A stretch of DNA of 64,000 nt from Minisyncoccia bacterium (GTDB lineage: Bacteria > Patescibacteriota > Minisyncoccia > Phycocordibacterales > UBA9973), in NCBI GenBank assembly GCA_049303835.1, contig JBAQNN010000003.1:114820-178819 (forward strand), written 5' to 3'. Position numbers and translations under genes: made by a program. Each line of letters begins with the position of its first letter. Position 1 is the stretch's first letter. The notes beneath the pieces are model-generated. The model did not search any database and was not told the origin of the DNA. It saw only the letters and a program-made list of their open reading frames with translations. Positions 1 to 64,000 of this stretch are shown piece by piece.

Positions 1-37
1 CCCTAGGGTGGTTTTTTGTGAAATAAAGATTATATCT

Positions 38-352
38 TTAGTACTCTCGGCGTCCTCCGCCATTGTATCCTCCTCTGTCGCCTCCACTTCGTGGTGGACG
101 AGCTTCCATAGGACGAGCTTCGTTGACAGTAAGTTTGCGTCCTTCAAATTCTTGATCGTTGAACATAGAGATAGCTTTAGCTGCCTCATCAGCAGATGAC
201 ATTTCTACGAATCCAAAACCTTTTGAACGACCGGACATTTTGTCCATGATAATCACAGCAGAAACAACGTTTCCAGCTTGTGCGAAGAGCTCTTTAAGAG
301 CGTCCTCTTGGGTGCTGTAAGGGAGTCCCCCTACATATAGCTTTGTAGCCAT
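38..352 (-). CDS. RNA-binding protein with RRM domain and Gly/Arg-rich C-terminal tail
   Basis: RNP-1 motif KGFGFVEM and RNP-2 LYVGGL; C-terminal RGG/GGYNGGG; TAA stop. Confidence 0.8.
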   Translation of the reverse strand: MATKLYVGGLPYSTQEDALKELFAQAGNVVSAVIIMDKMSGRSKGFGFVEMSSADEAAKAISMFNDQEFEGRKLTVNEARPMEARPPRSGGDRGGYNGGGRREY

Positions 353-496
353 ACTTTTTTACTTCTTCCTTTTTTACGAAAAAGGACAAAAAACTATTTA
401 ATAAAACGTAGAAACTCTATTTCGCTAAATGAGACCTACGTGTTAATTATAACATAACCATAATTAAAAGCAAAAAGTAATTTAAATTTAAAACAG

Positions 497-540
497 CCCG
501 GGCGAGTGCTTGGAAGCTACTCGACCCAGGCTGTGTGTCT
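497..540 (-). terminator. GC-rich hairpin (cgagt..actcg within gcccgggcgagtgcttggaagctactcgaccc), T-run on the minus strand; terminator of cassette A
   Basis: Inverted repeat directly downstream of the 557..808 minus-strand ORF, followed on that strand by ctgttttaaattt. Confidence 0.5.
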
Positions 541-556
541 GGCTGAGGTTCTATAC

Positions 557-808
557 TCAGCCGTGATGGTCGGAGATGATGTTGGTGACGAGCTTACGCG
601 CCCATGGAGTGGAGGTGATGTCCCTCCCACTCTCAACATCGAGAATCTTCTCGATGTGTTTGTTCCCGTTGATCTCAGCTCGGATGAACTTCTTGGTCTG
701 ATCCAGGTCGTTCCAGAAGAGGTTGATGTCTTCCTCCGAGGGTCTTTCCCCCACGAAAGAAATGACCTCACAACCGTTACCAAAGGTCTGAGCCCAAATT
801 ACTTCCAT
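557..808 (-). CDS. GC-rich cassette A: 83-aa hypothetical protein with no recognisable family
   Basis: ATG preceded by GGAGGT SD at 6-nt spacing; about 55% GC, unlike flanks; followed by a hairpin terminator; the overlapping plus-strand ORF has no SD. Confidence 0.55.
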   Translation of the reverse strand: MEVIWAQTFGNGCEVISFVGERPSEEDINLFWNDLDQTKKFIRAEINGNKHIEKILDVESGRDITSTPWARKLVTNIISDHHG

Positions 809-863
809 TTTCTACCTCCAAAAATACGTTAACACGAGTTAGCAATTCTGTCTAGATTTTATT

Positions 864-1847
864 TTATTCTTCCTCTTCATCCCCGACAGCACCAGATTCA
901 ATATCAGCAATGATTTCCCCTATTTCTCCTTCCATTATTTTGGGAAGATTATGCCATGATTTTTTTATACGGTGATCAGTTACTCTGTCTTGAGAATAAT
1001 TGTAAGTACGAATTTTTTCAGAACGATCACCGGAACCGATTTGCCCTTTACGAATACCGGCATGTTTGGCTGCTTCTTTCTCTTCTTCCAACTGCTGAAG
1101 TTTGGCAGTCAAAATCATCATTGCTTTCTCACGATTGGCGAGCTGGCTTCGTTCATTGGTAGAACGCACATCCAAACCTGTTGGCTTGTGAATAATCCTC
1201 ACAGCTGTTTCAACCTTGTTCACATTTTGTCCACCTTTCCCTCCTGAGCGGGAATATTCCATATCAAAATCCGCCGGATTTATTTGAAAAGTAACTTTTT
1301 TTCTGATTGGCAACACCGCCACAGAAGCGGTAGAGGTGTGCACTCGGCCATTTTTTTCGGTAGCTGGAATTCTTTGTACTCTATGCACCCCTGTCTCATA
1401 ACGCATCTTTTTAAAAACATCCTGTCCTTTTATTTCAAAACTTGCTTCTTTGTATCCATTCAAATCGCTTTTGGACTCATAATTTGTTTTCCATTGCCAA
1501 CCTTGTATCTCAGAGTATCTTTCATACATATGTGCTAGTTCCCAAGCAAAAAGCGAAGCTTCGTCTCCCCCGGCACCGGCGCGTACTTCTAGGACTATCT
1601 CATTTGGCGATTCATTTAGTTTGTCTTCCGCTTCTTTGTCTTTGTCTAAAATGTCTTGTACTTGTTTTTCTATTCTTTCTTTTTCTTCTTGAATAAATTT
1701 TAGTTCCTTCGCAGCCATCTCATGCAAGGTTTCATCACTATCCAACATCTCTCGTACTTCTGCTTCTTCACGTGCTAAACGCAAAAGTTCTCCAGCTAAA
1801 TAACTGGTATTGTGATTTTTCTTAAGTTCTTCAAGATCTAAACTCAT
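864..1847 (-). CDS. prfA: peptide chain release factor 1
   Basis: GGQ motif SGGKGGQNVNK; PxT-type tripeptide (RIPATE) rather than the SPF of RF2; full length 327 aa. Confidence 0.85.
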   Translation of the reverse strand: MSLDLEELKKNHNTSYLAGELLRLAREEAEVREMLDSDETLHEMAAKELKFIQEEKERIEKQVQDILDKDKEAEDKLNESPNEIVLEVRAGAGGDEASLFAWELAHMYERYSEIQGWQWKTNYESKSDLNGYKEASFEIKGQDVFKKMRYETGVHRVQRIPATEKNGRVHTSTASVAVLPIRKKVTFQINPADFDMEYSRSGGKGGQNVNKVETAVRIIHKPTGLDVRSTNERSQLANREKAMMILTAKLQQLEEEKEAAKHAGIRKGQIGSGDRSEKIRTYNYSQDRVTDHRIKKSWHNLPKIMEGEIGEIIADIESGAVGDEEEE

Positions 1848-1855
1848 AAAATTAA

Positions 1856-1939
1856 AAAGCTCCTTGCAATTTTACACTTCTGTGGGGCCCGCCCAGTATT
1901 CTGGGATGGGAGGAAGAATGTAAAATTGCAAGGAGCTTT
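1856..1939. repeat. perfect 21-bp inverted repeat (aaagctccttgcaattttaca / tgtaaaattgcaaggagcttt) around a 42-nt GC-rich spacer that itself contains a cccag/ctggg hairpin
   Basis: Read directly in the sequence between the rpmE stop and the prfA start; compound stem-loop. Confidence 0.7.
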
Positions 1940-1944
1940 GTTCC

Positions 1945-4307: not shown

Positions 4308-6071
4308 CTAAACTCTATGTACTGCCTTGTGTTCTACTGCAATATGAGAGGCTAAATATTCTTTTGTCCCACCTGAATCTTTTGTGGCAATCTTTTTGCC
4401 AGGATTAAAAATATTTTTGGGATCAAAAACTTCTTTCACTTTTTTAAAAATTTCCATCATCTTATCTCCATACATTTTTTCCAGATACGGAGTACGAATG
4501 AGGCCATCATTGTGTTCTGCAGTTATAGAACCATGGTATTTTACAACCAGGTCATACACCTTTTCTCCTAATTCTAATATTATTTTTGCCGTGTCTTTAC
4601 GCTTGAAATCCATCAGCGGAATGATATGGAAATTTCCATCCCCCGCATGTCCGGCCAAAGTAAACATCAAATCGTATTTATTTAAAATACTATTTAGTTC
4701 TGGAAGAAATTTAGGTAAAAATTCCGGACGGACGATGATGTCGTCTATAAAAGGGGCTGTGCGCATACCTTTCACATGTTTGCGCAACAGAGCAAAACTT
4801 TCTCTTCTAATATCCCAATACTTATTTGCTTCTATCTCGGACTCTGTAATATGTACCTTTAATTTAAAATTATTTATCTTTTCTGCCAATTTTATACATT
4901 TATCATCCACTATTTTTTCATTTTCTCCCGCAAATTCAGCCAAAATAATTAGTTTTGGTACCCCACCGGTAAGCATCAAAAACACTTCTGGCAAAAAACT
5001 CCACATAAATTTAACCATTCCGATAAATCCTTTATTTTTAAGAAAATCTGGAAAGAACTTCATCGCTAATTTCATCGTTTTATCATCATAAATTTCCAAA
5101 GTTTCTGGATTTTGGGTCAAAATTTCATCTACCAATCGGCCTAGAGGTCCTACATCGTTCATAAAAATCACCACCAGTTTGGAATGTTTATTTTCAGGAA
5201 TTAATTTTAAAGTCATCTCAGTGACAATACCCAAGGTCCCCTGCGAACCGACTAATAATTTATTTAAATCAAACACAGAGTAAGGAAGAAAATTTTTACG
5301 GCGGAAGGTTCCAGCCGAAGGCTGGAGTAATGCCGAGAAATTTTCTTCCTTACCCTGATCCATCACATTCCAAATATAGTATCCCGCAGAATTCTTGCTG
5401 ACTTTCGGCTTGGCTTGCATTATTTCTTCTTTATTTTCTTTTATTAATTCAAAAATATTTTTATAAACACTCCCCTCAAAATCATTTTGCTTTATTTTTT
5501 TATCCAACTCTTTTTGATTTAAAGGTTTTACTTCATATTCGTTGCCATCCTCCAAGACAACCTTCGCAGACAAGATATAATCTTCCATCTTCCCGTATTT
5601 CAAGGTTCTTTCTCCTGCCGAATTGTTGCCATACATTCCGCCAAGGGCATTGAGACTTTTAGACGCAGTATAACAAGGCAAGATAAGACCCTTCCCGAGA
5701 GCGATCTTTTCAAAATCCCGATAAAACATCCCGGGTTGTACTACAATTTCCCATTTTTGTTTATTTTCAATCGGTAGTGGCCCCCCGATTAATTTATTCA
5801 TATATCGGGTAAAATCCAAAATAATTGACTCTCCGATTGCCCCACCCGACATATCCGTACCCGCGCACCTGGCAGTAATGGCTACGTCAGGGTATTTTTC
5901 TTTACTCTCTTTTATCCACTTTACTAAATTCTTTATATCTTCCGAATCTTTTGGAAAAAGCACGATTTTCGGTCGTACTTCAAGCAGACTCGCATCATGC
6001 GAGTATTTTATGAGAGTATCTTCATCGTCCTCCACATCACCCCTAAAAAATTTTAAAATTTCTTCTTTCAA
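4308..6071 (-). CDS. FAD-binding oxidoreductase (FAD-linked oxidase, GlcD/D-lactate dehydrogenase family)
   Basis: PCMH-type FAD-binding domain near the N-terminus (ARCAGTDMSGGAIGESIILDF); C-terminal FAD-oxidase domain; 587 aa. Confidence 0.7.
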   Translation of the reverse strand: MKEEILKFFRGDVEDDEDTLIKYSHDASLLEVRPKIVLFPKDSEDIKNLVKWIKESKEKYPDVAITARCAGTDMSGGAIGESIILDFTRYMNKLIGGPLPIENKQKWEIVVQPGMFYRDFEKIALGKGLILPCYTASKSLNALGGMYGNNSAGERTLKYGKMEDYILSAKVVLEDGNEYEVKPLNQKELDKKIKQNDFEGSVYKNIFELIKENKEEIMQAKPKVSKNSAGYYIWNVMDQGKEENFSALLQPSAGTFRRKNFLPYSVFDLNKLLVGSQGTLGIVTEMTLKLIPENKHSKLVVIFMNDVGPLGRLVDEILTQNPETLEIYDDKTMKLAMKFFPDFLKNKGFIGMVKFMWSFLPEVFLMLTGGVPKLIILAEFAGENEKIVDDKCIKLAEKINNFKLKVHITESEIEANKYWDIRRESFALLRKHVKGMRTAPFIDDIIVRPEFLPKFLPELNSILNKYDLMFTLAGHAGDGNFHIIPLMDFKRKDTAKIILELGEKVYDLVVKYHGSITAEHNDGLIRTPYLEKMYGDKMMEIFKKVKEVFDPKNIFNPGKKIATKDSGGTKEYLASHIAVEHKAVHRV

Positions 6072-13536: not shown

Positions 13537-13539
13537 TTT

Positions 13540-13568
13540 TTGACAAAACAGATTTATCATGCATAATG
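13540..13568 (+). promoter_or_regulatory. sigma70-like promoter: TTGACA, 17 nt, (c)ATAATg, with TG extension; drives cassette B
   Basis: Consensus -35 hexamer at 13540-13545 and -10 at 13563-13568, about 30 nt upstream of the AAGGAGG SD. Confidence 0.55.
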
Positions 13569-13602
13569 TTGCTTAAGTTATAAGTTCTTAAGGAGGATAG
13601 GA

Positions 13603-13827
13603 ATGAACGGCAAGCTGATCGTCATGATCAAAAGGAACGGAGGCTGGTCTGGACACGTCTTTGATGGCGCGAAGTGTGTCCAGGACCTGGATGTTCCCGC
13701 GGGTCTTCGTGTGGGTGACGGAAGTCTCGTCGCCTACGTGGAAGAAGTCGCCACCAAGATGGGCCTCGTGCCGACGGAAGTGGACTGGTCACCCCACGTG
13801 TTTCAGTTGTCTTCCCCTACCAAGTAG
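13603..13827 (+). CDS. GC-rich cassette B: 74-aa hypothetical protein
   Basis: AAGGAGG SD 7 nt upstream of ATG; about 57% GC; codons GGC/GTG/GAG atypical for the host; terminator immediately downstream. Confidence 0.6.
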   Translation: MNGKLIVMIKRNGGWSGHVFDGAKCVQDLDVPAGLRVGDGSLVAYVEEVATKMGLVPTEVDWSPHVFQLSSPTK

Positions 13828-13832
13828 ACCCC

Positions 13833-13876
13833 AGCCACCAAAGAAGCCACGCTTCTTTGGTGGCTTCTTTGTTTTT
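13833..13876 (+). terminator. rho-independent terminator (agccaccaaagaagc / gcttctttggtggct plus tctttgttttt)
   Basis: Perfect 15-bp stem, 3-nt loop, T-tract. Confidence 0.8.
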
Positions 13877-13894
13877 AAGTGCTAAAATAAACAG

Positions 13895-14881: not shown

Positions 14882-14926
14882 AACGAAAAGGCCCCAGCGA
14901 CTCCTCCTGGTGTCGCTGGGGCTTGA
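14882..14926. terminator. bidirectional GC hairpin terminator (gccccagcgac..gtcgctggggc) shared by rmuC (+) and cassette C (-)
   Basis: 11-bp stem flanked by an A-run on the left and a T-rich stretch on the right. Confidence 0.65.
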
Positions 14927-14951
14927 ATATGTGTGTACTATAAAAAGAACG

Positions 14952-15404
14952 CTACTGCGGTCGGAGGTTCTCCACCTCTCTGTAGAATGCCTCCAGGTTG
15001 GCTCCCTGCTCGGGGAAAAAGTATTTCCCCTTCTTGGCCATCGCGACCATCCGATCCAGAACCTTGTTCACCTCCTTAGGGTTTACCTTCTCTCTGTTGA
15101 GTTTCTTGAGGAGAACAGAGTAGTAGTTCGGCCAGGAGCCACTCGGCTCCACGCCGGACTCCACCGCATTCAGCTCTTGGTGGAGCAGTCTGAGGGTGGT
15201 GTGGTTCTCCATGTCAGAGAGCCAAAAGTGCAGGTCCTTCACCTTCCTTTCCATTTGCACAACCCTTCTTTCCAACTGAGCGACCTCGGTGATGGATTTG
15301 TCCACCTTCTTCTCGGTGGGCGTTCGGTAGGACGTGGGGAGGATGAGGAAAAAGATGGATACCAATCCTATGGCGAAGAGCGAAGAAGGTCTCCTTGTGG
15401 GCAT
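14952..15404 (-). CDS. GC-rich cassette C: 150-aa membrane-anchored hypothetical protein
   Basis: TAGGAGGT SD 7 nt before ATG; N-terminal hydrophobic signal-anchor (LFAIGLVSIFFLILP); GC-rich; charged coiled-coil-like remainder; no family recognised. Confidence 0.6.
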   Translation of the reverse strand: MPTRRPSSLFAIGLVSIFFLILPTSYRTPTEKKVDKSITEVAQLERRVVQMERKVKDLHFWLSDMENHTTLRLLHQELNAVESGVEPSGSWPNYYSVLLKKLNREKVNPKEVNKVLDRMVAMAKKGKYFFPEQGANLEAFYREVENLRPQ

Positions 15405-15500
15405 CTGATAACCTCCTAAATCCCAAATTCACAATTCCGCGCTTAATATAGCATACTCTAAAATAAAATGTTATATTCTCCATTAAGGTTCCTTGTATAT

Positions 15501-15572
15501 GGCCTCATCGTCTAATAGTCAGGACACAAGCTTCTCAAGCTTGGAATTCGGGTGCGATTCCCGGTGAGGTCA
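15501..15572 (+). tRNA. tRNA-Glu (anticodon CUC)
   Basis: Hand-folded cloverleaf: acceptor ggcctca/tgaggtc, anticodon stem caagc/gcttg, loop ttCTCaa; paralog of the tRNA-Glu(UUC) at 30874. Confidence 0.8.
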
Positions 15573-15647
15573 CAAATCTTTTGTCTTTTTCTTTTTATGT
15601 GATATAAAACAAGCGAATGCACATCCAAGAAATTAAGGGGGAAAATT

Positions 15648-15884
15648 ATGCCTAGAAGAATCGGCACTCTCACTCAGAGCATCTCTCATCTCGGGAGGAT
15701 GCTCACTCAAGGCAACGAGATGAACAGCGGAACCCGTCGGACCATCATGGACACCGCCGGGTTCAACCTGACCATGGTAATAGGCCCCAGGATGGAGGAG
15801 ATTCACAGGGCACTCAAGGATGGGGACTCCAAGATGGCCCTTGAACTCCTTGAAAAGGAGATTGAGTACAGCATCAGTATCTAG
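15648..15884 (+). CDS. GC-rich cassette E: 78-aa hypothetical protein
   Basis: AAGGGGGAA SD; GC-rich; plausible TTGTCT / N16-17 / TATAAA promoter at 15581-15608; terminator follows. Confidence 0.55.
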   Translation: MPRRIGTLTQSISHLGRMLTQGNEMNSGTRRTIMDTAGFNLTMVIGPRMEEIHRALKDGDSKMALELLEKEIEYSISI

Positions 15885-15932
15885 ACCCGCCCACACAGCG
15901 CAAGACTCGCTTTCGGGCGGGTTTTGTGTTTA
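15885..15932 (+). terminator. rho-independent terminator (acccgccc..gggcgggt plus ttttgtgttt)
   Basis: 8-bp GC stem with inner gcg/cgc pairing, T-tract. Confidence 0.65.
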
Positions 15933-17238: not shown

Positions 17239-17318
17239 TATACTTTCATTATAAAACATATTTGAAAAAATAAAAGGTGATAGCAACAAAAAAATAAAAT
17301 TGTAGTATAATAAATACT

Positions 17319-22638: not shown

Positions 22639-22667
22639 TTGACTATTTGCGCTAAAAATTGTAAAAA
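22639..22667 (+). promoter_or_regulatory. sigma70-like promoter: TTGACT, 17 nt, TAAAAA; upstream of cassette F
   Basis: Hexamers read in the sequence; about 28 nt upstream of the AGAGGAGG SD and ATG at 22696. Confidence 0.4.
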
Positions 22668-41096: not shown

Positions 41097-41101
41097 AAAT
41101 T

Positions 41102-42181: not shown

Positions 42182-42191
42182 ATTACATTAT

Positions 42192-42872: not shown

Positions 42873-42880
42873 TCAACTGT

Positions 42881-44392: not shown

Positions 44393-44422
44393 CGAAGAGA
44401 CAAATGAGTCTTCCCTTGTTAA

Positions 44423-44803: not shown

Positions 44804-44817
44804 AAAATTTGTCGTGC

Positions 44818-45405: not shown

Positions 45406-45478
45406 AATGATTTTATTTATATACCATCCTTGGAAAATTCAGCTACTCTTTTCTAAGAATATTGTTATTTCTTCAAAA

Positions 45479-45805: not shown

Positions 45806-45837
45806 CGTGTTGTAATGGTTAAACCAATTGATTTATT

Positions 45838-45872
45838 TTATAAAGTGCTTTACAATATAAACTACTTTATAA
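45838..45872. promoter_or_regulatory. inverted repeat TTATAAAGT-n17-ACTTTATAA in the divergent HxlR/NmrA-like intergenic region (candidate operator)
   Basis: Read in the sequence. Confidence 0.35.
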
Positions 45873-45955
45873 TATAAATTGATAATATCATGTGCTCGTA
45901 ATAAAAACAAGTGGTCGTAAATATTATAAGTATTAATAATAATAATAAAATAAAT

Positions 45956-46594
45956 ATGAAAATAACAATTTTTGGAGCATCAGGCGCAACAGGAAAAAAT
46001 GTAGTTGAGCAGGCGCTAGCTCAAGGAAATGAAGTAACTGCATTTGTCAGAAACCCTAAGAAAATGGATATTAAAAACGATAAGCTTACTGTAACTCAAG
46101 GCGATGTCACAAAGGCGCAGGGTGTTGAAAATGCAGTTGCGGTTGCTGATGGGGTTGTCGTAGCGTTAGGCGCGTCTCCCGATATGCAGGCAGATATAGT
46201 TATGGAAGAAGGGACTAGGAATATAATGGATGCCATGAAAAAGCACGGCGTTAAGAGAATTATTGTCCAAAGCTCATATCCTATGAGTGGATCTGCGGAG
46301 GGTGTTGCGTTTTTGAAACAAATGGGTATGGGAGATGAGCAAATAGCGATGGTACAGCCTGTTCTTGATGATAAAGCAAAACAAGAAGACGCTATCCGTG
46401 ATAGCGGACTTGAATATACAATTGTGAGACCCCTTATGTTAAATAATGAGCCAAAAACAGGAAAATACCGGGTAGGAGAAAATCTGGTTGTTAAAGTGGG
46501 AGATGCTATTTCCCGCGCGGATGTGGCGGATTTTATGTTGAAAGACTTAACAGAGAATAAGTTTATAGGAAAAACAGTAACCCTCGCATACTAA
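45956..46594 (+). CDS. NAD(P)-binding protein, NmrA/BVR-B-like atypical SDR
   Basis: MKITIFGASGATGKN Rossmann GxxGxxG at the N-terminus; start at the internal Met rather than the ORF-track 45911. Confidence 0.7.
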   Translation: MKITIFGASGATGKNVVEQALAQGNEVTAFVRNPKKMDIKNDKLTVTQGDVTKAQGVENAVAVADGVVVALGASPDMQADIVMEEGTRNIMDAMKKHGVKRIIVQSSYPMSGSAEGVAFLKQMGMGDEQIAMVQPVLDDKAKQEDAIRDSGLEYTIVRPLMLNNEPKTGKYRVGENLVVKVGDAISRADVADFMLKDLTENKFIGKTVTLAY

Positions 46595-46988
46595 AAATCC
46601 AAATGTACGCATCACTTTGGTATCTCCTGATAGGATTCTTACTTGGCTATGGATAAAGAGGAGTACAACGAAGGCAATTGTCCCTATTGCACGAAAGTAA
46701 TTTTTTGTGATGGCAAATTCAATTCCGAAGCCATGTCCACAACAAGATGTCCTCACTGACAGAAACCTCTCAAGGTGACAATAAGAAAAAGGATCTAAAT
46801 CATTATTGTGCCATTTGATCCAAAGTCGGGATGCAAAGTCGACAAGAAAATAAATAATCGATGGACTCATCATTCTGATTGTAGTTCTTTTTTTGCCTCC
46901 GCTCATTAGTTTTCTATTCGACACTTTTAACGCCTTAGACAAAGTACCCCTACTTAACTTATTGACAGATGCGAGGTGTCTTTGATAT

Positions 46989-47006
46989 ACTTACCGAGTG
47001 GTAAGT
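46989..47006. promoter_or_regulatory. palindrome ACTTACC-gagt-GGTAAGT upstream of the TetR gene (candidate operator)
   Basis: Perfect 7-bp arms 25 nt upstream of the TetR-family ATG. Confidence 0.4.
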
Positions 47007-47030
47007 AATGCAAATAAATAATTTAAAAAT

Positions 47031-47618
47031 ATGAGCACAATAGCAAAACAATCCGATGACATTATTCTAGACACTAAGAAATATATCATCGATACAGCTC
47101 GTCACCTTTTCTCTGAATATAGCTATTTGGGTGTTTCAATGAATGACATTGCAAAGAAACTGAATGTCACTAAGGCGGCACTTTATTATCATTTTGCCGG
47201 TAAAACAGAAATTTACGGGAAAGTAATCGATGGGGTTTCTAATGATCTAAGTCTAACTATTACGGAAGCTTTGAATGAGGTTACTATTGATAAAAAACTG
47301 CATAAATTAATTAAGAATTACTTGGATTTCGGTTTTAAGGAAAATAATCTCATTAAAGCTTTGATGTTAAAACTGCCACCAGCCGATTCAGAAATAACAA
47401 AACACATTATTCAGTTAAGAGAGCGGGTCGCTAGCCTAATCCAACCCGTAATTGAGGAAATGTCAGTAAACAAAAAAATAACCGGAAAAGTTGATAGTCG
47501 ACTTTTAACTTCTATGCTTACCGGTATGATGGATGGTCTGCTTTTGGAACATTCATTCCTCAATAAAAAAATAAATTCAGCAAAAATATCAGATCAAATT
47601 ATTGCTGTTTTATTTTAA
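47031..47618 (+). CDS. TetR/AcrR family transcriptional regulator
   Basis: N-terminal HTH IIDTARHLFSEYSYLGVSMNDIAKKLNVTKAALYYHF. Confidence 0.85.
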   Translation: MSTIAKQSDDIILDTKKYIIDTARHLFSEYSYLGVSMNDIAKKLNVTKAALYYHFAGKTEIYGKVIDGVSNDLSLTITEALNEVTIDKKLHKLIKNYLDFGFKENNLIKALMLKLPPADSEITKHIIQLRERVASLIQPVIEEMSVNKKITGKVDSRLLTSMLTGMMDGLLLEHSFLNKKINSAKISDQIIAVLF

Positions 47619-47675
47619 AGGTCGAGGACTGATTCACCTCACGGGTCTTATAAATTAATTAGATTAAGTAAAATC

Positions 47676-47816
47676 ATGCAAACAAATTTTTTAACAAACA
47701 TTAATTGGTCAAGTCCTACAACTATTGGAATTGTTATAGGAGTAATCGTTGTCATAGCTATTGTCGGTTATTTGATATGGGCTTGGACAGCAAAAAAGCC
47801 ACCGTTTGTACAATAA
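47676..47816 (+). CDS. possible small single-TM protein (46 aa), not in the ORF track
   Basis: ATG..TAA ORF MQTNFLTNINWSSPTTIGIVIGVIVVIAIVGYLIWAWTAKKPPFVQ in an otherwise empty 290-nt intergenic gap. Confidence 0.25.
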   Translation: MQTNFLTNINWSSPTTIGIVIGVIVVIAIVGYLIWAWTAKKPPFVQ

Positions 47817-47906
47817 AAATATTTAGGGTATTCAGTTGCTAAATTTAAAATTATAAAAACTGAGTACCCAATAATGCTTTTATTTAATATTTTTAAAAAA
47901 TAGTTT

Positions 47907-49004
47907 ATGCATAAAGAATATAGACCAATAAAATTTCCAGCAGACGAATCAGCTCACGATTACATAATTGAATGGTGGTATTTTAACGGCCATTTAAAAG
48001 ACAATGATGGCAATGAATATTCGTTTATGGATTGTTTGTTTCGGGTAGATGTTAAAAAAGTAAAAATACCATTTTTAAGCAAAATACCACTTAAAACATC
48101 TTACTTTTCTCATTCCCTTATTACTGATTTAAATACTAAAAAATTCTTTCATAGGATAGCCCCTTTCTCGATGATTTCTGATGATAGTTTCTCTAAGCCA
48201 CTGCTTTATATAAATTATCTTAATCCGGAAGTCAAAAACGGATATATCAACTGTGCTATTGAAAAAATAGACGAATCAAAATATCACCTGAAAAATGAAG
48301 ATGTTGATTTAATTTTGACCTCAAACAAAGAGCCAATACTTGAGGGAGGGAAAGGATACTTGGATCTTCATTCCAAAACCACATATTATTATTCTCTGAC
48401 AAATTTAAAAACCGAAGGCAGGATAAAAATTAGAAACAAGTGGATAGATGTTACTGGAAAATCATGGATGGATCATCAGTGGGCTGACACTGAATATTCG
48501 CAGGATAAGTGGGATTGGTTTTCGGTGCAACTAGATAATAATACAGAAATAGTCTGTTGTGTATATGATGACGGCAAGGTAAAAACCTACTTCGCAGACA
48601 TTTCTTATGCGGACAACCGCCAAGAACATTATCAAGAAGTTGAGATCACCACTTTAAATGAGCGGTGGACAAGCCCAAAAAGCAAAGCAGTTTATCCATT
48701 AGCATGGAAAATAAAAATACCGGAAAGAAATATCGAACTGAATTTGACGGCGAAAGTTGATAATCAGGAAATGCTATTTGGTTCAATTAACTATTGGGAA
48801 GGCCCACTTCGAGTGGAAGGAAATTTTGGAGAAGAAAAAGTAGAAGGAGTCGGTTTTATGGAATTGGTTGGTTATCCTTCACAATATACCAATGTAAAAT
48901 ATCTAAGCGATGAAATAGGTAAAACTGCAAGTCGGTTTTTCTCCATCGCCAAAAACAAAGCTTTTGATATAACCGGAAATTTAAAAAAGAGAATAACTGG
49001 ATAG
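47907..49004 (+). CDS. AttH/CrtC-like lipocalin-domain protein (COG5621 predicted secreted hydrolase family)
   Basis: N-terminal FPADESAHDYIIEWWYFNGHL motif characteristic of the CrtC/AttH family; 365 aa. Confidence 0.6.
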   Translation: MHKEYRPIKFPADESAHDYIIEWWYFNGHLKDNDGNEYSFMDCLFRVDVKKVKIPFLSKIPLKTSYFSHSLITDLNTKKFFHRIAPFSMISDDSFSKPLLYINYLNPEVKNGYINCAIEKIDESKYHLKNEDVDLILTSNKEPILEGGKGYLDLHSKTTYYYSLTNLKTEGRIKIRNKWIDVTGKSWMDHQWADTEYSQDKWDWFSVQLDNNTEIVCCVYDDGKVKTYFADISYADNRQEHYQEVEITTLNERWTSPKSKAVYPLAWKIKIPERNIELNLTAKVDNQEMLFGSINYWEGPLRVEGNFGEEKVEGVGFMELVGYPSQYTNVKYLSDEIGKTASRFFSIAKNKAFDITGNLKKRITG

Positions 49005-49014
49005 AATTATAATT

Positions 49015-49851
49015 ATGGCAAAATCAAAGCGACCCAAAATCGGTTTAGCATTAGGAAGCGGAGGCTCAAGAGGGTTGGCTCATATTGGGGTCATTAAAGT
49101 CTTGGAGGAAAATAATATACCGATTGATTTTATTGCGGGGACAAGCATCGGCGCCATGGCAGGTGGATTTTATGCGGCCGGATTAGGTGTCAAAAAAATG
49201 GAGGAAATAGTATTAGAAACTAACTGGCGCAGAATGTTTTCGCTGGTTGATCCGCATTTAAAGCAAGGACTGATCACTGGAGAAAAAGTAAAAACATTTA
49301 TTGAGGGATATGTTGATGGAAAAAGAATTGAAGATTGTAAAATCCCGTTTGTGGCGGTGGCTACGGATTTAAAAACTGGAGAGATTGTGGTTTTAAACAA
49401 AGGTGAAATGGCACAAGCCATAAGAGCCAGCATCTCTATCCCTTTGGTTTTTAAACCAGTGGAAATAGATGGCAGAATGTTAATTGACGGTGGTTTATCG
49501 GCACCTGTTCCTGTAAAGATTGTTCAGGATATGGGAGCAGATATAGTTATTGCTGTTAATTTAGACAAACATTACCACAATGAAAAATGGAAGCCTGGGT
49601 GGTACAATATTGCCAATGATTCGCTAAATATTTTGCGCCACCATCTCGCACTTTCAAACGTGTCAACTGCTGACATTGTTATTAATATAGATGTCGGCAC
49701 AAATAATTATTGGTATCAGTTTATAAATGGTCAAGATAAAATCCTGACTGGTGAGAAAGCGGCCAAAGAAATACTTCCGAGATTGCAAGAAATAATATAT
49801 CAAAAAAGCAAAAATGGCCTTAAAAAATATCTGGAATTTTTTAAGGGGTAA
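49015..49851 (+). CDS. patatin-like phospholipase
   Basis: Oxyanion GLALGSGGSRG; nucleophile GTSIG (GxSxG); catalytic DGG. Confidence 0.8.
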   Translation: MAKSKRPKIGLALGSGGSRGLAHIGVIKVLEENNIPIDFIAGTSIGAMAGGFYAAGLGVKKMEEIVLETNWRRMFSLVDPHLKQGLITGEKVKTFIEGYVDGKRIEDCKIPFVAVATDLKTGEIVVLNKGEMAQAIRASISIPLVFKPVEIDGRMLIDGGLSAPVPVKIVQDMGADIVIAVNLDKHYHNEKWKPGWYNIANDSLNILRHHLALSNVSTADIVINIDVGTNNYWYQFINGQDKILTGEKAAKEILPRLQEIIYQKSKNGLKKYLEFFKG

Positions 49852-49956
49852 GAATATTAGTAACGGTATTTATTATAATTATGGAACATCATCCATCTCT
49901 TCAATACTGATTGGTATTTTAGTAGTATTAGAAGTATATTTGATATAATTTAATCT

Positions 49957-50526
49957 ATGGATATTTTTTCACATGGCCTCTGGGCCGGGGCCGCATACAA
50001 AGCAATAAATAAGAAAGCAAAAAAGCCGCTCAATGTGTGGTTTGCCGGTTTCTGGGGAATATTCCCCGATCTTTTTGCATTCACTATCACGTTTATCTGG
50101 CTATTTGGGAACATTATTTTTGGCGGTATGAGTTTTTCTGATCTGCCACACCCCGATTCGGTTGAACCAGCGCCGCAGGATACCCTGCCGATTTTTCGTC
50201 TTACCTCGCTTCTCTATAGCATCAGCCACAGCGCAATTATATTTCTCATTGTTTTTGGTATAACTTTTCTCATATTTCGCCGGCCAATCTGGGAGCTCGG
50301 GGGCTGGTTTATCCATATTCTTTTGGACATCCCGACGCATTCCTTTCAATTCTATCCAACGCCGTTCCTGTGGCCGCTCTCTGGATGGACATTTGATGGA
50401 TTCTCTTGGGGGACGGTCTGGTTCCTTATACCAAACTACATTGCCATCATTGCCGTATATATGCTTCTTCGCAGAAAGAAAAAACTTAATTCCGCTAGAC
50501 ATTATCCGAGCCATAACATTGAGTAA
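49957..50526 (+). CDS. hypothetical membrane protein (possible YdjM/DUF457-like membrane-bound hydrolase)
   Basis: Four or five TM helices; MDIFSHGLWAGAAY N-terminus reminiscent of the YdjM family; weak. Confidence 0.35.
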   Translation: MDIFSHGLWAGAAYKAINKKAKKPLNVWFAGFWGIFPDLFAFTITFIWLFGNIIFGGMSFSDLPHPDSVEPAPQDTLPIFRLTSLLYSISHSAIIFLIVFGITFLIFRRPIWELGGWFIHILLDIPTHSFQFYPTPFLWPLSGWTFDGFSWGTVWFLIPNYIAIIAVYMLLRRKKKLNSARHYPSHNIE

Positions 50527-52072: not shown

Positions 52073-52484
52073 AGATAATAAATAATTTAATAAGTAAATT
52101 TTGTACGAGAGACTAGCACGTACCGTGAAGACATACATCGACCTGTCTTCAAAAACATAGTTTTAATGTTTGTGTTATTAAGTGTTTTAAAAAAGGGGTA
52201 TGGGGGGTTGTCGATTCGTGGATGTTTGGGATTGGCTAGATGTGGTGAAACGTAACCTTCTGGAATTCCGAAACTTATTTTCAATTTAGGCTAAGGGGTT
52301 GTTTGGAATATTTTTAGATCTGAAAATCGAGGACCTCCAAAAATTCCGCTAGAAAAAATTAGAAAATGGCTTGGAAAATAAGGCCTAGTTTCAATATTTG
52401 CAGTATTTAATAACAAGGTGGTAATATGTAAGTACAACTTTATAAGCGATCTAAATCAGTAGACAATTACTGACATGATTCAAG

Positions 52485-52592
52485 ACCAGACACGGGCAAG
52501 AAACCTATCATATAGGACTGCCGTGTCTGGCCGTGTCTCGAAAGGGATGCTGGAGGACTTCGGTCCTCACCTATGTGGTAGGTTTTTTGTTT
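52485..52592 (+). promoter_or_regulatory. structured 5' leader: hairpin ccagacacggg..ccgtgtctgg, direct repeat ccgtgtctgg/ccgtgtctcg, hairpin gaggac-ttcg-gtcctc, then cctatgtggtagg plus T6, ending 4 nt before the ATG
   Basis: Read in the sequence; a terminator-like element immediately before the start codon suggests attenuation or a small RNA. Confidence 0.4.
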
Positions 52593-53477
52593 ATGAACAC
52601 AGAAAATAATATAAATTATGAATATACCGATAAAAAGACTGCTCTTGAGGCAGTGGAAAATGACAGATATGTCTTAGCTTCTCTTCCTCCGAATCTTCAA
52701 GACGATGCGGAGATTGTTCGTGTTGCCATATCACTTGAAACTTTGTGCGGATCAAATATGAATGGGCCAGTATTTAAATATGCCTCTCCAAGATTACGCA
52801 GTAAAAGAAATATTGTGCTTGAAGCAGTAAAAAACTATGGCGAGGCAATAGAATACGCTTCACCTAGTTTTGATGACGATAAAGAAATAGTTCTTACTGC
52901 TCTAAATAATTCCTGGGTAGATACCTATCCTTATGGCGGATCCATTATTTATGCCTGTATATCTCGTAAACTTCGCGAAGATTCAAAAGTAATCGAGGCT
53001 ATGGGATTTATAAAGGAAAGCAATTTGTTAATGCGTTTAATGACGTGGAAAGAAGACAAAAGAAAACGAGAAGAGTGGTGGCAAGAGAAATATGGAACAA
53101 TCAACAAAGAACGCTTAGAACAGTGGAAGCGTGATGTGGCAGAGTGGCAACAGAATAAAAAGAGCAGTGAAAATGAAAGCTATACAAAACTAAGAGCAGA
53201 AATTGAGAAAATGCCTCAATATGAAATTTGGAGACAATCAGTTCTTGAGAAGTTTGGCAAAAAATGCGCTGTCTGCGGTTCTACCGAAAGTTTAGAAGTG
53301 GACCATCGCTATAAATCTTTTTACGCAATTATAAAAGAATACGGAATTACTAATACAATCCAAGCCTATGAATGTGCTGCTTTGTGGAATATAAATAATG
53401 GCGCGCCTCTATGCAAGAAACATCATGATAGAACTGTAACTAGTGTATATCGAATATTAAAAAGTAGTTTATCTTAA
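52593..53477 (+). CDS. DUF4116-repeat protein fused to a C-terminal HNH endonuclease
   Basis: DUF4116-type repeats (NIVLEAVKNYGEAIEYASPSFDDDKEIVLTALNN); HNH CAVCGS...LEVDH...CKKHHD; the ORF-track start at 52533 was rejected because it lies inside the leader hairpins. Confidence 0.6.
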   Translation: MNTENNINYEYTDKKTALEAVENDRYVLASLPPNLQDDAEIVRVAISLETLCGSNMNGPVFKYASPRLRSKRNIVLEAVKNYGEAIEYASPSFDDDKEIVLTALNNSWVDTYPYGGSIIYACISRKLREDSKVIEAMGFIKESNLLMRLMTWKEDKRKREEWWQEKYGTINKERLEQWKRDVAEWQQNKKSSENESYTKLRAEIEKMPQYEIWRQSVLEKFGKKCAVCGSTESLEVDHRYKSFYAIIKEYGITNTIQAYECAALWNINNGAPLCKKHHDRTVTSVYRILKSSLS

Positions 53478-54197: not shown

Positions 54198-54232
54198 CTC
54201 AGTAGTTTTAGGTACTAGCGTATAATATAAGT

Positions 54233-54814
54233 ATGAAAACATTAAAGGAATCATGCTTTGCGCTAAGCACAAAAATATTGAGAACTAGCCTTCAAAAAGC
54301 ACGCTTAAAAGAGCCGGTGGAGGAGGAATATCTTAACTTTATACATAATGGTAAACCATCCGTCCTTTTCTATTCCATAGAGGATAGTTTTGATGGAAAT
54401 ACCTACTTTGTTATTGATTTTAACGGAGAACCACAGAAAATCCTTTTATCTAATAGAGAATTAACCTATGGCACCAGAACCTATTTAACTTGCGGTTGTG
54501 GACACAAAACCAATGCCTTATACCTCAAGAACACCCCGGAAAGCACCTTTTTTGCCTGCTTTAAGTGTCACAATCTTCGTTATAAATCTACTACGATCAA
54601 TAGCAGGAGTGACCATGGACGAATGCTTTATCAACAAAGCAAGAGATTAGCCCTTCTTGATATGCGTGAAAGTATTCCACGACCTCTATATAAATCTAAA
54701 TGGACAAAACGTTTTCAACGCTTCTTGAAACTCTGTAATCAATCGGGGTTGTTTAACCAAGTAAAGGATGCTCAAACAACTATGGAAATGATAAGGGGGT
54801 ATCAATCTCAATAG
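54233..54814 (+). CDS. hypothetical protein with Cys/His cluster (TCGCGHK...CFKCHNLRY), possible zinc ribbon
   Basis: ORF; CxC...CxxC pattern. Confidence 0.4.
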   Translation: MKTLKESCFALSTKILRTSLQKARLKEPVEEEYLNFIHNGKPSVLFYSIEDSFDGNTYFVIDFNGEPQKILLSNRELTYGTRTYLTCGCGHKTNALYLKNTPESTFFACFKCHNLRYKSTTINSRSDHGRMLYQQSKRLALLDMRESIPRPLYKSKWTKRFQRFLKLCNQSGLFNQVKDAQTTMEMIRGYQSQ

Positions 54815-62236: not shown

Positions 62237-62304
62237 GATTTTATATATAAAACAAAACCACTCCAGATTTTCAATACGGAGGTTTTGTGTTAGATTATAT
62301 ATAG

Positions 62305-62376
62305 GTCTTCGTAGTTAAATGGATATAACGACTCCGTCCTAAGGAGTAATTGCAGGTTCGATTCCTGCCGAGGACA
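62305..62376 (+). tRNA. tRNA-Arg (anticodon CCU)
   Basis: Hand fold: acceptor gtcttcg/cgaggac (one G-U), D-stem gtta/taac, anticodon stem actcc/ggagt, loop gtCCTaa, T-loop ttcgatt. Confidence 0.65.
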
Positions 62377-62380
62377 CAAT

Positions 62381-62614
62381 CTAAAGGGCTAATAAACCAA
62401 CGATTCTTGGTTTATCAAAACCCACAGTAATTTCATTATCAATTATAATAACCGGCACACCCATTTGTCCGCTTTTTTCTACCATTTCCTTTCTCTTTTC
62501 AAGATCACTTGCTACGTCATATTCTGTGTAAGCAATATCGTTTGCTTTAAAATAATCTTTGGCCAGGTGGCAGAAATGACAAGTCGGGGTTGAATAAATC
62601 GTTACATTTTTCAT
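62381..62614 (-). CDS. glutaredoxin-like protein (NrdH/YruB-type)
   Basis: IYSTPTCHFCHLAKDYF (CxxC) and GVPVIIID motif; 77 aa. Confidence 0.8.
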   Translation of the reverse strand: MKNVTIYSTPTCHFCHLAKDYFKANDIAYTEYDVASDLEKRKEMVEKSGQMGVPVIIIDNEITVGFDKPRIVGLLAL

Positions 62615-62694
62615 ATATTTTTCTTCTTTTATCTTTTAATATCTTCATTATAGCATACTTGTCAAGCACCAAAAATAAAGTTATATTTTAGTTG

Positions 62695-62738
62695 CGCGGG
62701 ATTAGTTTAGCTTGCCCCGCCTGAAATAGGCGGGGTGA
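62695..62738 (+). repeat. tRNA-like 5' fragment (gcgcgggattagtttagc plus stem-loop ccccgcc-tgaaata-ggcgggg) immediately upstream of tRNA-Gly; overlaps the TATAAT -10 element at 62741-62746
   Basis: Resembles the acceptor and D-arm of the downstream tRNA-Gly (gcggttgtagtttagtgg); the stem-loop could also act as a terminator for upstream transcription. Confidence 0.35.
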
Positions 62739-62755
62739 AGTATAATGAGTCTTAT

Positions 62756-62826
62756 GCGGTTGTAGTTTAGTGGTAGAACTGGTGCTTCCCAAGCATCGGA
62801 CGCGAGTTCGATTCTCGCCAGCCGCA
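62756..62826 (+). tRNA. tRNA-Gly (anticodon CCC)
   Basis: Hand fold: acceptor gcggttg/cagccgc, anticodon stem ggtgc/gcatc, loop ttCCCaa, T-loop ttcgatt. Confidence 0.75.
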
Positions 62827-62830
62827 CATT

Positions 62831-64000
62831 TTATTTTTTCTCACCCAAAGCCATGATTATCTTGATGACCGTATCAGGATTGAGAGACATACTTTCTATC
62901 CCCTCATTTACCAAGAATTGAGCAAAATCCGGATAGTCCGACGGTGCTTGTCCACAAATTCCAATATATTTCCCCTTTTCTTTGCATTTGTGAATAATTT
63001 CCGCCACAAGTTTTTTCACAGCAGGATTATTTTCATTTGATATATGTGTGACTATTCCAGAATCACGATCAAGTCCCAAAGTAAGTTGAGTAAGATCATT
63101 GGACCCTATAGACATACCATCAAAGATTTCTAAAAATTCATCCGCTAATAAAATATTTGAAGGTATCTCACACATTACATAAATCTTCAAGCTTTCATCT
63201 TTTGCTCTATCTAAGCCAAATTCTTTCATCACTTCTATAACCTTCTTACCCTCTTCTGGGGTTCGACAAAATGGAATCATAGGTACCACATTTGATAGAC
63301 CCATATCCTCTCGCACAATTTTCATTGCTTTACATTCCAAACCAAAAGCTGTTTTAAATTTTGGATCATAATACCTGGAAGCTCCGCGCCAACCCAACAT
63401 AGGATTTTCTTCGTGCGGTTCATACATCTCTCCGCCGACTAAGGTACGATATTCATTGGTCTTAAAATCAGAAAATCTGATGATAACTTTATTAGGATAA
63501 AAAGCAGCGCCTATTTTCGCAATTCCGAGAGCCAGTTCGTCCACATAAAACTGAGGTTTGTCTTTATAAAGAGGCGTCATCGCCTCAATCTCTTTAAGTA
63601 ATTTCGTGATAGCTGGAGTCTTTTTTCCAAGTTTTAATTTTTTATAATCAATCAAAGCGTTCGGATGTAAACGAATATGCGAAGCGATAATGAACTCAAG
63701 TCTTCCTAAGCCCACTCCTTCTGCGGGGATATTGTGGTTCTTGAAAGCATCATCGGGAGAACCAATGTTTACCATTATTTTTGTATCTACTTTAGGTATT
63801 TTATCTAAATGATGCTCTTTTACTTCAAATGGAATAATCCCTTCATATACGTTGCCCACCTGGCCTCCTGAGGCGTCCACCGTGACTTCCTGACCGTTTT
63901 TTAGTGCCTTGGTAGCATTATTAGCCCCCACAATACAAGGAATGCCCAATTCGCGAGAAACGATAGCTGCATGCGAAGTACGCCCCCCTTTATCTGTGAC
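62831..64000 (-). CDS. PEP-utilising enzyme (phosphoenolpyruvate synthase / pyruvate phosphate dikinase family), C-terminal part; the gene continues beyond the window end
   Basis: The reverse strand at the window edge encodes ...[21 protein letters not shown] (phospho-His domain), followed by the PEP-binding TIM-barrel domain. Confidence 0.75.

Follow-up and report, generated by a model that had tools for sequence, protein, structure and literature searches.

Initiation on both leaderless mRNAs and mRNAs led by a Shine–Dalgarno (SD) sequence is described for the GeneMarkS-2 'group C' (Actinobacteria, e.g. Mycobacterium, Deinococcus, and also haloarchaea; PMC6028130, PMC3898074, PMC3986360). 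Here, we analyze a stretch of 64,000 nucleotides from a Minisyncoccia bacterium (GenBank assembly GCA_049303835.1, contig JBAQNN010000003.1, positions 114,820 to 178,819), hereafter called the window, in which seven GC-rich intergenic units (named A to G) carry nine small open reading frames (ORFs) preceded by SD sequences, whereas ordinary genes mostly lack them. As in group C, one set of genes displays a −10 (TANNNT) box at a fixed short distance upstream and no SD, while a second set is predicted to be leadered and equipped with SDs. Unlike in group C, the two modes coincide here with classes of codon usage and of GC content at third codon positions (GC3), with gene size and with gene position (less sharply in relatives), and the SD-led class is a small minority in a lineage of the candidate phyla radiation (CPR).

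In Bacteroidia, translation is SD-independent while the anti-SD is retained and used by a few genes (e.g. for rpsU autoregulation); start regions have A-rich leaders and are not leaderless, and the SD-bearing genes are specific conserved genes. The window is similar in that nearly all genes lack an SD and a small set has strong ones, which would imply a special regulatory status for this set. It differs by its leaderless-type starts, by the diversity of its GC-rich small-gene class and by rpsU, which is itself SD-less. Closer in phylogeny, a survey of Parcubacteria did not detect CCUCCU in about half of the 16S rRNA genes (Tsurumaki et al. 2022, PMC9297842), and it is common for annotations to truncate 16S 3′ ends by mistake (PMC6107228). 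The former study concerns the same superphylum and agrees with the window on SD-independent translation overall, but it deals with an rRNA feature only and does not describe a coexisting SD-led GC-rich gene class. If the clade were truly devoid of an anti-SD, this class would conflict with a simple reading of that work.

Regarding their layout, the units recall phage 'morons' and genomic islets, since they are predicted from sequence to be autonomous promoter–ORF–terminator units of atypical composition with precise insertion between genes that are direct neighbors in relatives (slots of A, E and F). Unlike morons, they are located in the core chromosome (dcw/ftsZ, lysS–greA and rmuC regions) with no prophage and no phage homologues, and at least B and F appear to be long-term residents under purifying selection that kept their composition. 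With integron cassettes, they share small and highly diverse ORFs, mostly of unassigned function, gathered at particular sites. However, there is no integrase and no shared attC-like repeat, the units occur on both strands in scattered slots, five of them (A, B, C, E and F) have a promoter-like site of their own, and the sole recombinase is of the serine type and belongs to a separate element.

CPR bacteria (Patescibacteria) represent a large share of bacterial diversity; their ribosomes are unusual, and very little work has been devoted to how they initiate translation. Our favored reading, to which we give a probability of about 0.6, is that two gene-expression architectures stand side by side in one genome: a leaderless core and a class of leadered, SD-led small genes. 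Genomes that mix leaderless and SD-led genes have been described, and so have compositional islets, but their coupling in a CPR clade together with a lasting deviant codon usage appears to be undescribed in the literature searched. The same search returned no description of a leaderless organization in CPR.

SD signals separate unit ORFs from ordinary genes

SD strength was scored as the duplex energy (dG) between positions −20 to −3 (18 nt) upstream of the start codon and 5′-CACCUCCU-3′. This anti-SD is that of the canonical tail (...CACCUCCUUA); no rRNA gene is present in the window or in the 81 loci examined, and the literature searched yielded no 16S anti-SD information specific to this lineage. 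The seven units and their parts are as follows (energies in kcal/mol; promoter boxes are given with the spacer between them).

493–821, minus strand: unit G; ORF 557–808, 83 aa, GC3 0.69; SD UUGGAGGU at 814–821, dG −10.7
493–534, minus strand: terminator hairpin of unit G, −30.4 kcal/mol, z-score −5.2
13540–13865, plus strand: unit A; TTGACA 13540–13545, 16 nt, CATAAT 13562–13567; ORF 13603–13827, 74 aa, GC3 0.71
13589–13596, plus strand: SD of unit A, UAAGGAGG, dG −10.0; terminator at 13833–13865
14891–15474, minus strand: unit B; ATAACA 15469–15474, 18 nt, TATATT 15445–15450; ORF 14952–15404, 150 aa, GC3 0.76
15411–15418, minus strand: SD of unit B, UAGGAGGU, dG −11.1
14891–14922, minus strand: terminator of unit B with AGGAGGA loop, −27.2 kcal/mol, z-score −6.4
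15581–15921, plus strand: unit C; TTGTCT 15581–15586, 16 nt, TATAAA 15603–15608; ORF 15648–15884, 78 aa, GC3 0.72
15634–15641, plus strand: SD of unit C, UAAGGGGG, dG −9.1; terminator at 15886–15921
22639–23390, plus strand: unit D, three ORFs, between mraZ and lysS; TTGACU 22639–22644, 17 nt, UAAAAA 22662–22667
22696–22959, plus strand: D1, 87 aa; SD at 22674–22682, spacing 14 nt
22981–23109, plus strand: D2, 42-aa membrane peptide; SD at 22967–22975
23106–23348, plus strand: D3, 80 aa; SD at 23092–23101; start overlaps the D2 stop
23361–23390, plus strand: hairpin of unit D, −33.2 kcal/mol, without U-tract
25520–25818, minus strand: unit E, between greA and rpsU; TTGACA 25813–25818, 17 nt, UAAUAA 25790–25795; ORF 25576–25758, 60 aa, GC3 0.75
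25765–25773, minus strand: SD of unit E, AAAGGAGGA, dG −10.0; terminator at 25520–25543
28981–29404, minus strand: unit F, between ftsZ and trxB; TTGACA 29399–29404, 17 nt, UACUAU 29376–29381; ORF 29036–29350, 104 aa, GC3 0.66
29357–29364, minus strand: weak SD of unit F, AGUGAGGA, dG −6.2; terminator at 28981–29010

The nine unit ORFs are preceded by GGAGG-type motifs complementary to the canonical 16S tail, with dG values from −6.2 to −11.2 kcal/mol (median −10.1); eight of them reach −9 kcal/mol or below, the exception being F. By comparison, the median for 69 ordinary genes is +0.3 kcal/mol. Only 3/69 are at or below −6 kcal/mol, a level that is more common at random positions (9.8%). The difference is significant (Mann–Whitney, p = 7e-7) and persists when each host gene is granted its best candidate start within the first 30 codons (p = 3e-6). 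In a scan of all window ORFs of at least 35 aa, strong-SD starts with a GC3 of at least 0.64 were found at the unit ORFs only, with none beyond 30 kb.

These results bear out the original prediction, made from the sequence of the window, that SD-less core and element genes contrast with SD-carrying cassettes. All genes that it named are indeed SD-less: Pfam confirms the identity of fba, gatB, obg, rmuC, ftsI, ftsA, ftsZ, trxB, tsaD, the serine recombinase, MarR and the MFS pump; valS is a class-I aminoacyl-tRNA synthetase in Pfam and was taken as valS, greA is supported by the genes tabulated for a contig that matches the window, lysS by its translation and 80 relatives, and rpmE is named as in the prediction. 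The split between cassette ORFs and other ORFs, which the prediction proposed to check, holds within the window at the p value given above, and an SD is present at 9/9 unit ORFs. Two details need correction. The claimed uniform spacing of 6–8 nt is too narrow, since values range from 4 nt (D3) to 9 nt, with D1 at 14 nt. Moreover, the AGGAGG-like sequence attributed to every cassette ORF reads AAGGGGG in C and only GUGAGG in F.

The layout of the units is recurrent. A sigma-70-like promoter is predicted near the ORF in five units (A, B, C, E and F), is weaker in D and is lacking in G; the −10 box is weak in D and E. Unit G lies 55 nt downstream of prfA with no convincing promoter and may be read through from this gene. 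The −10 boxes of the units end 25–40 nt before the ATG (in D, ∼10 nt before the SD of D1), which predicts SD-containing leaders of roughly 10–35 nt. A hairpin is present at the end of all seven units (−20 to −33 kcal/mol; z-score −3.7 to −6.4), and only that of D lacks a U-tract. Across the scanned 12.8–30.5 kb, the two best promoter matches belong to A (11/12) and F, and the four best terminator matches to F, E, A and C, in that order. Insert A, with limits at ∼13537–13878, separates the stop codon of exoX precisely from the predicted leaderless promoter of rmuC, while unit C directly follows tRNA-Glu(CUC) (15501–15573), which sits between units B and C. No Rfam match to the units was obtained even at E ≤ 1 (a permissive scan gave tRNA only), and the units display neither shared repeats nor paralogy with each other.

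Two further observations concern start codons. Between the SD of D1 (AGGAGG, 22676–22681) and its ATG (22696), a mini-ORF (TTG AAA ATT TAA) abuts the ATG; the 14-nt spacing may be explained by termination–reinitiation via this three-codon mini-ORF, or by chance. In addition, the NCBI annotation (proteins MFZ30118xx) gives 67 aa for A and 80 aa for E, as compared with the SD-supported 74 and 60 aa, which suggests start-codon errors in the automated annotation of this lineage.

Ordinary genes display leaderless-type starts

We collected relatives with a LysS-anchored scan limited to one genome per species, which resulted in 80 related loci (the sequences compared are designated by L numbers). 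All of them are metagenome-assembled genomes (MAGs) of Candidatus Nomurabacteria, Paceibacterota or Parcubacteria, with a best LysS identity of 92%. The gene order trxB-ftsZ-ftsA-ybeY-rpsU-[E]-greA-lysS-[D]-mraZ-rsmH-ftsL-ftsI-murE is kept in ∼30 relatives. Host genes of at least 100 aa are SD-less across all 80 loci, with a median dG of ∼0 and 0–20% of genes per locus (mostly 0–10%) at or below −7 kcal/mol.

We counted −10-like hexamers (TAnnnT with at most one mismatch to TATAAT) before ATG-started genes with an upstream gap of at least 35 nt. Their positions peak at exactly 6 nt before the ATG, with 5/27 window genes at this spacing, two more at 7 nt and one more at 8 nt. At 6 nt, 36 such hexamers are found in close relatives (L002–L032) and 41 in distant ones (L033–L081), against a background of ∼2–4 per position. 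Three examples from the window are given below.

29428–29442, plus strand: trxB, host style; TATAAT 29428–29433, 6 nt before ATG 29440; box conserved in L002, L005, L006 and L008
17306–17321, plus strand: Gmad2-domain protein gene, host style; TATAAT 17306–17311, 7 nt before ATG 17319; no SD
54221–54235, plus strand: host-style gene; TATAAT 54221–54226, 6 nt before ATG 54233; no SD

Since the −10 box ends 6–8 nt before the ATG, transcripts are predicted to begin at or next to the start codon. How compact this organization can be is illustrated by relatives in which the slot of unit F is empty: the ftsZ stop codon, the trxB promoter and the trxB ATG are all included in 40 bp. The SD-less style is common to the clade as a whole, and its best reading is leaderless initiation for genes that head an operon, while the short or overlapping junctions inside operons may point to coupling. 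Host genes would thus lack an SD because their mRNAs look leaderless. The trxB promoter region itself (29416–29442, and also in L002, L005, L006 and L008) is conserved as cTTGACgcgTAGTGTATAAT followed by 6 nt and the ATG. Its TTGAC is only 5–7 nt upstream of the −10 box, unlike the normal −35 spacing, and may represent a site for a regulator or an atypical element of the promoter.

Two further regions of the window follow the host style. The accessory-looking block at 40683–50526 encodes MarR, a biotin-lipoyl-like protein, an MFS pump, an FMN reductase, NmrA-like, TetR, CrtC-like lipocalin and patatin proteins. All its genes are AT-rich and SD-less, so that accessory status alone is no predictor of SD/GC style. 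For the integrated element that adjoins tRNA-Glu(UUC), the original prediction of a host-like style is borne out: its GC content (0.30–0.35) is below that of the host, its gene starts are SD-less, and it falls outside the GC-rich class.

30874/30900–40344, minus strand: integrated element with a serine recombinase, a prim-pol and proteins without assigned family
30900–32603: large serine recombinase of the element
32823–35111: prim-pol of the element
35130–35645: pol-beta-thumb protein of the element, which also encodes a 1001-aa protein without family

Unit ORFs have their own composition and codon usage

In a window with an overall GC content of 0.38, the GC3 of unit ORFs ranges from 0.64 to 0.76 (mean 0.70) versus 0.34 ± 0.07 in host genes (maximum 0.49), the two ranges being disjoint. 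At first and second codon positions (GC1 and GC2), the increase in GC content is only moderate, and the R/K ratio amounts to 1.0 versus 0.41 in the host. The order GC3 > GC1 > GC2 is observed for all nine unit ORFs, as expected for real coding frames. Their codon usage is approximately the inverse of that of the host, as illustrated by AAC (0.91 versus 0.25), TAC (0.81 versus 0.22), AAG (0.69 versus 0.21), GAG (0.68 versus 0.24), CTC (0.52 versus 0.12) and CCC (0.53 versus 0.13). Such an atypical composition and codon usage is what is expected of a foreign islet. It does not correspond to a high-expression pattern of the host, since the ribosomal-protein and cell-division genes of the window are AT-rich in usage. 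Several tRNAs with C34 are encoded in the window.

15501–15573: tRNA-Glu(CUC)
30635–30722: tRNA-Ser(CGA)
62305–62377: tRNA-Arg(CCU)
62756–62827: tRNA-Gly(CCC)

The codons GAG, AGG, GGG and UCG are thus readable. The G-ending codons read by these tRNAs are minor in host genes and much more common in unit ORFs.

At the protein level, nothing significant was found for the unit products in Pfam, PHROG, NCBIfam or PADLOC. The AlphaFold model of F is helical (mean confidence score, pLDDT, 75.6) and has no fold match in the PDB; B is hydrophobic at its N-terminus, probably forms a coiled coil and ends in a conserved domain, and E looks disordered. These small variable proteins (membrane peptides, possibly a membrane-anchored or secreted one) may act in symbiont–host interaction or as accessory factors.

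Some units are old residents while others are exchanged

The history of the units could be followed for a subset of them. An orthologue of F is present in L083 at the same slot beside ftsZ, with 77% identity (86% for FtsZ). The two genes differ by 31 synonymous and 23 non-synonymous codon changes, resulting in a ratio of non-synonymous to synonymous divergence (dN/dS) of 0.10. Synonymous sites are near saturation (proportion of synonymous differences, pS, 0.66; synonymous divergence, dS, ∼1.6), as in ftsZ (pS 0.75), and nucleotide identity is uniform (0.70–0.82) along ftsA-ftsZ-F, F being as diverged as its flanks. Nevertheless, GC3 is 0.66 in the window and 0.63 in L083 versus 0.37–0.38 in the flanks, and the SD (AGAAAGUGAGG) is conserved while the spacer changed. 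The F slot measures 485 bp in the window and is empty (40–50 bp) in L002, L005, L006 and L008. An exhaustive profile search extended the F family to 28 clusters at 50% identity, all consisting of ∼100-aa proteins. Those members that could be placed adjoin core genes (enolase, rpsF-ssb-efp, YcaO/TrmB). The broad family alignment was too divergent for a locus search, and a narrower one yielded one metagenome locus. In L084, the family locus displays TTGACA-17-TACAAT, GGAGGG and a GC3 of 0.66 between flanks at 0.36–0.45; in L085, AAGGAG precedes the F-family ORF and a neighbor gene shows CATAAT-6-ATG. The F-family gene P0012 (24 contigs) is located between two TrmB-like genes next to YcaO (L085 and L087). 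On one P0012 contig, the block borders a large serine recombinase, and some F-family members may ride integrative elements.

For B, ten homologues were found (52–85% identity). In every relative with context examined (five records, three distinct sequences), B occupies the same slot, convergent with rmuC. Its GC3 in four copies is 0.76, 0.64, 0.57 and 0.64 versus 0.40, 0.32, 0.26 and 0.32 for rmuC, and a SD-like motif is present in 4/4 copies. Synonymous sites are saturated, while dN/dS is ∼0.13 for the C-terminal part. We attempted to polarize GC3 changes by singletons among the four B orthologues; this approach is uninformative at saturation, where the expected ratio follows from composition. 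A side observation concerns the hairpin of B, which is almost invariant in four species (CCAGCGAC-ACC(A/T)AGGAGGA-GTCGCTGG; window 14891–14922 on the minus strand, ∼L088 4488–4530, L091 4487–4530 and L093 4484–4527) amid genes at saturation. Its loop reads as a SD-like AGGAGGA on the B strand and as an anti-SD-like UCCUCCU on the rmuC strand, and the hairpin may be more than a terminator. Taken together, synteny and substitution patterns show B and F as long-term residents of fixed slots that are evidently kept under purifying selection.

On thinner evidence, E and D2 would also be old residents of their slots. E has an orthologue in L002, whose hairpin shows three compensatory pair changes; the slot measures 412 bp in the window and is empty (60–90 bp) in L005, L006 and L010. 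The D unit of L002, the closest GTDB relative, has the same promoter, the same first SD, a D2-like 42-aa peptide and the hairpin, but other ORFs, and the size of this slot varies from 279 to 2681 bp among relatives. L002 also contains a run of 10 N inside the E orthologue and a duplicated greA 5′ end (5268–5640). This assembly break at a GC-rich unit raises the possibility that such units may be under-represented in MAGs.

Other data indicate exchange. L093 carries A at the corresponding site, which is empty in L088 and L091, and a distant A homologue is found at the same slot in L012. Presence and absence at the same site therefore differ between units: A (L088, L091) and F (L002, L005, L006, L008) are missing in close relatives, while B is retained, D2 and E are shared with L002 and F with L083. 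The rmuC region is mosaic: dS between the window and L088 is 0.74 for rmuC, yet B is saturated in the same comparison; conversely, the C-terminal part of B is closer to L093 (dS 0.86) than rmuC is (dS 1.42), and A is found in L093 but not in L088. Such a mosaic points to homologous recombination among related lineages via conserved flanking genes, which we infer to be the exchange route. Unit borders display no repeats, target duplications, att-like repeats or recombinases, and integron, transposon and target-duplication models were rejected since neither repeats nor recombinases are present there. Scans of viral contigs for F, B, G and A found no relatives, and a phage origin was rejected for this reason. 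For G, no homologue was found even in a search of 5.8 billion proteins. The mobility implied by the original prediction is partly supported, by the slots of A and F, which are empty in some close relatives, and by the mosaic rmuC region.

A class of SD-led slot ORFs exists across the clade

The association between GC-rich slots and SD-led ORFs is also observed in the 80 loci. Of the intergenic slots of at least 200 bp in which a 150-bp stretch exceeds the locus GC by 0.15 or more, 62% contain a SD-led ORF of at least 35 aa versus 11% after shuffling. With a threshold of +0.20, these values become 90% versus 15%, while slots below +0.05 are at 5% versus 2%. In slots, ATGs opening ORFs of at least 35 aa are enriched ∼3.7-fold at 5–9 nt after GGAGG relative to 10–24 nt. 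For 48 clean SD-led slot ORFs of relatives, 90% are above the locus GC, with a mean GC3 of 0.52. Their proteins are almost all singletons across species, which indicates that turnover and divergence are high. A three-species family in the lysS–mraZ slot keeps GGAGGUG at constant spacing, a motif that matches the canonical CACCUCC tail.

From these observations, namely SD conservation between orthologues, spacing and match to the canonical tail, it is very probable that the host ribosome has a working anti-SD.

Weighing the origin and maintenance of the SD-led class

A first alternative is a recent import: the units would come from a SD-using donor of ∼55% GC, would have brought their own SDs along and would not yet have drifted to the host composition. 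The atypical composition and codon usage, including Arg, Leu and Pro choices (AGG/AGA, CUC, CCC) that are unlike those of the host, fit this scenario, as do the patchy distribution of A and F, the predominance of singletons among SD-led slot ORFs of 80 species, the lack of any homologue of G, and the third positions of F, which could reflect decay of a GC3 that was ∼0.85 in the ancestor. We nevertheless consider it unlikely. B is syntenic in all relatives examined with a GC3 of 0.57–0.76 despite saturated synonymous sites, F is as diverged as its flanking core genes and under purifying selection, and the nine ORFs fall in a narrow GC3 band (0.64–0.76) despite differing apparent ages. For the F and B families, neither low divergence relative to the flanks nor drift toward host composition was found, and their closest homologues do not come from a different, compositionally matching lineage. 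No homologues of F and B were found in GC-rich SD-using donors; all those traced are in similar AT-rich contexts, where neighbor genes, whenever their DNA was available, are SD-less with leaderless-type starts. The promoter of the D unit is also conserved with L002. A hidden GC-rich reservoir, i.e. a clade-specific plasmid, phage or mobile pool of ∼55% GC with SD-led genes that repeatedly refills the same slots and so keeps composition constant, would account for the narrow GC3 band, for the mosaic histories around rmuC/B/A, for the high diversity of slot contents and for the presence of the F family in different slots (ftsZ, enolase, rpsF-ssb, TrmB), in one copy within a block near a serine recombinase. 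We judge it as improbable as a recent import, given the lack of viral-contig matches (F, B, G and A) and of PHROG matches, unit borders that show neither a recombinase nor att-like repeats nor target duplications, the invariable slot of B in all relatives examined and the equal divergence of the F cassette and its flanks.

Two other explanations question the signals themselves. The AGGAGG motifs might not be used as SDs, for instance if the 16S rRNA has no anti-SD, and could serve another purpose or another expression route. The Parcubacteria 16S survey (PMC9297842) goes in this direction, as does the AGGAGGA conserved in the terminator loop of B, where there is no ribosome-binding site. This explanation is very doubtful, since ORF starts are enriched 5–9 nt after GGAGG, SDs are conserved between orthologues while spacers diverge, and the motif extends to GGAGGUG, complementary to canonical CACCUCC; in addition, the missing 16S motif may reflect truncated annotations (PMC6107228). 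Finally, the units could be assembly chimeras, or structured RNA genes with spurious ORFs. MAG data, the long chance ORFs that GC-rich sequence yields on both strands and the assembly break inside the E orthologue of L002 invite this suspicion. However, units E and G are also found, flanks included, in an independent Logan assembly (SRR28062879): contig L001, which carries E, is 100% identical to the window over 2,349 bp, and L082 has the arrangement of G. The same architecture is found in MAGs from many studies. Together with the codon-position order in nine ORFs, the dN/dS values of F (0.10) and of the C-terminal part of B (∼0.13) and the absence of Rfam matches at E ≤ 1, this largely refutes an artefactual or non-coding nature, whose probability is negligible.

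The side-by-side architectures that we favor would function as follows. Core genes, and most genes in general, are AT-rich (GC3 ∼0.34), and their mRNAs would start at or next to the start codon from a −10 box located 6–8 nt before the ATG; downstream genes of operons, with short or overlapping junctions, would require no SD. The small genes (42–150 aa) lie on either strand in the slots that separate conserved core genes, mostly as self-contained units comprising a predicted sigma-70-type promoter and 5′ leader, a GGAGG-type SD 4–14 nt before the start, an ORF rich in C- or G-ending codons and a stable hairpin. As unit mRNAs are predicted to have leaders, they would depend on SD/anti-SD pairing, and the SD signal would consequently track the small-gene class. 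The class would be native to the clade, with some members persisting in fixed slots under purifying selection while keeping their SD and GC3-rich usage, and others coming and going between close relatives, probably by homologous recombination through conserved flanks. A SD signal that tracks the mRNA leader, and not foreignness as such, seems to be the better description of the data. Regarding the two explanations put forward in the original prediction, a SD-dependent donor with cassettes not adapted to the host is contradicted for the traceable units (B and F and, less firmly, E and D2), while distinct translational control is favored and can now be sharpened to a leaderless core versus leadered, SD-carrying small genes.

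Several points weigh against this interpretation. We infer SD use by the host's own ribosomes from conservation and spacing, and the leaderless starts and unit promoters are predictions from sequence; promoter-like matches overall are only modestly above shuffles (46 versus 35). Among more distantly related genomes, SD-led ORFs exceed the locus GC only modestly (mean +0.07). When GC3-rich ORFs are picked by composition only, the association is weaker, with ∼30% at a dG of −7 kcal/mol or below versus 2–6% of host genes; this procedure is noisy, as it often picks the antisense frame, which shares third positions. The third positions of F versus L083 (SS 50, SW 17, WS 14, WW 20; S, G or C; W, A or T) fit a slow decay from a GC-richer ancestor as well as an equilibrium. 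As F by itself does not settle the GC3 question, maintenance is argued mainly from B and from the depth of the F family. Horizontal exchange is real for A, F and the rmuC/B mosaic, as judged from slot occupancy and divergence. For A, C, G, D1 and D3, no orthologues could be traced, and a recent import may apply to these.

The least expected part of these results is the persistent GC3-rich usage of the resident genes B and F. Possible candidates for its upkeep are selection on mRNA stability/structure or on decoding, biased gene conversion, or the hidden GC-rich reservoir considered above. More speculatively, the clade (Nomurabacteria/Paceibacteria) may use two expression 'dialects' in a sub-megabase genome, the composition and SDs of the minority being selected as a separate translational regulon; we regard this extension as tentative and would not presently favor it. 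If true, the small-gene regulon could be switched, e.g. by anti-SD availability, by specialized ribosomes or by C34 tRNAs for G-ending codons. In its strongest form, the 16S rRNA of the clade would lack the canonical anti-SD and the small genes would be read by a non-standard route.

Besides, the pattern provides sequence-level evidence for a Parcubacteria clade that may run mostly on leaderless mRNAs. It is also relevant to gene calling, as start codons and small genes are easily mis-annotated in these MAGs. The SD-led class offers a handle on whether the anti-SD works in reduced ribosomes and on what maintains a deviant codon usage in resident genes.

Other features of the window

A DUF4116 ORF (52533–53477) has its putative GTG start inside a LOOT RNA (Rfam RF03000, 62 bits) at 52448–52568, and the true start of this ORF is probably further downstream.

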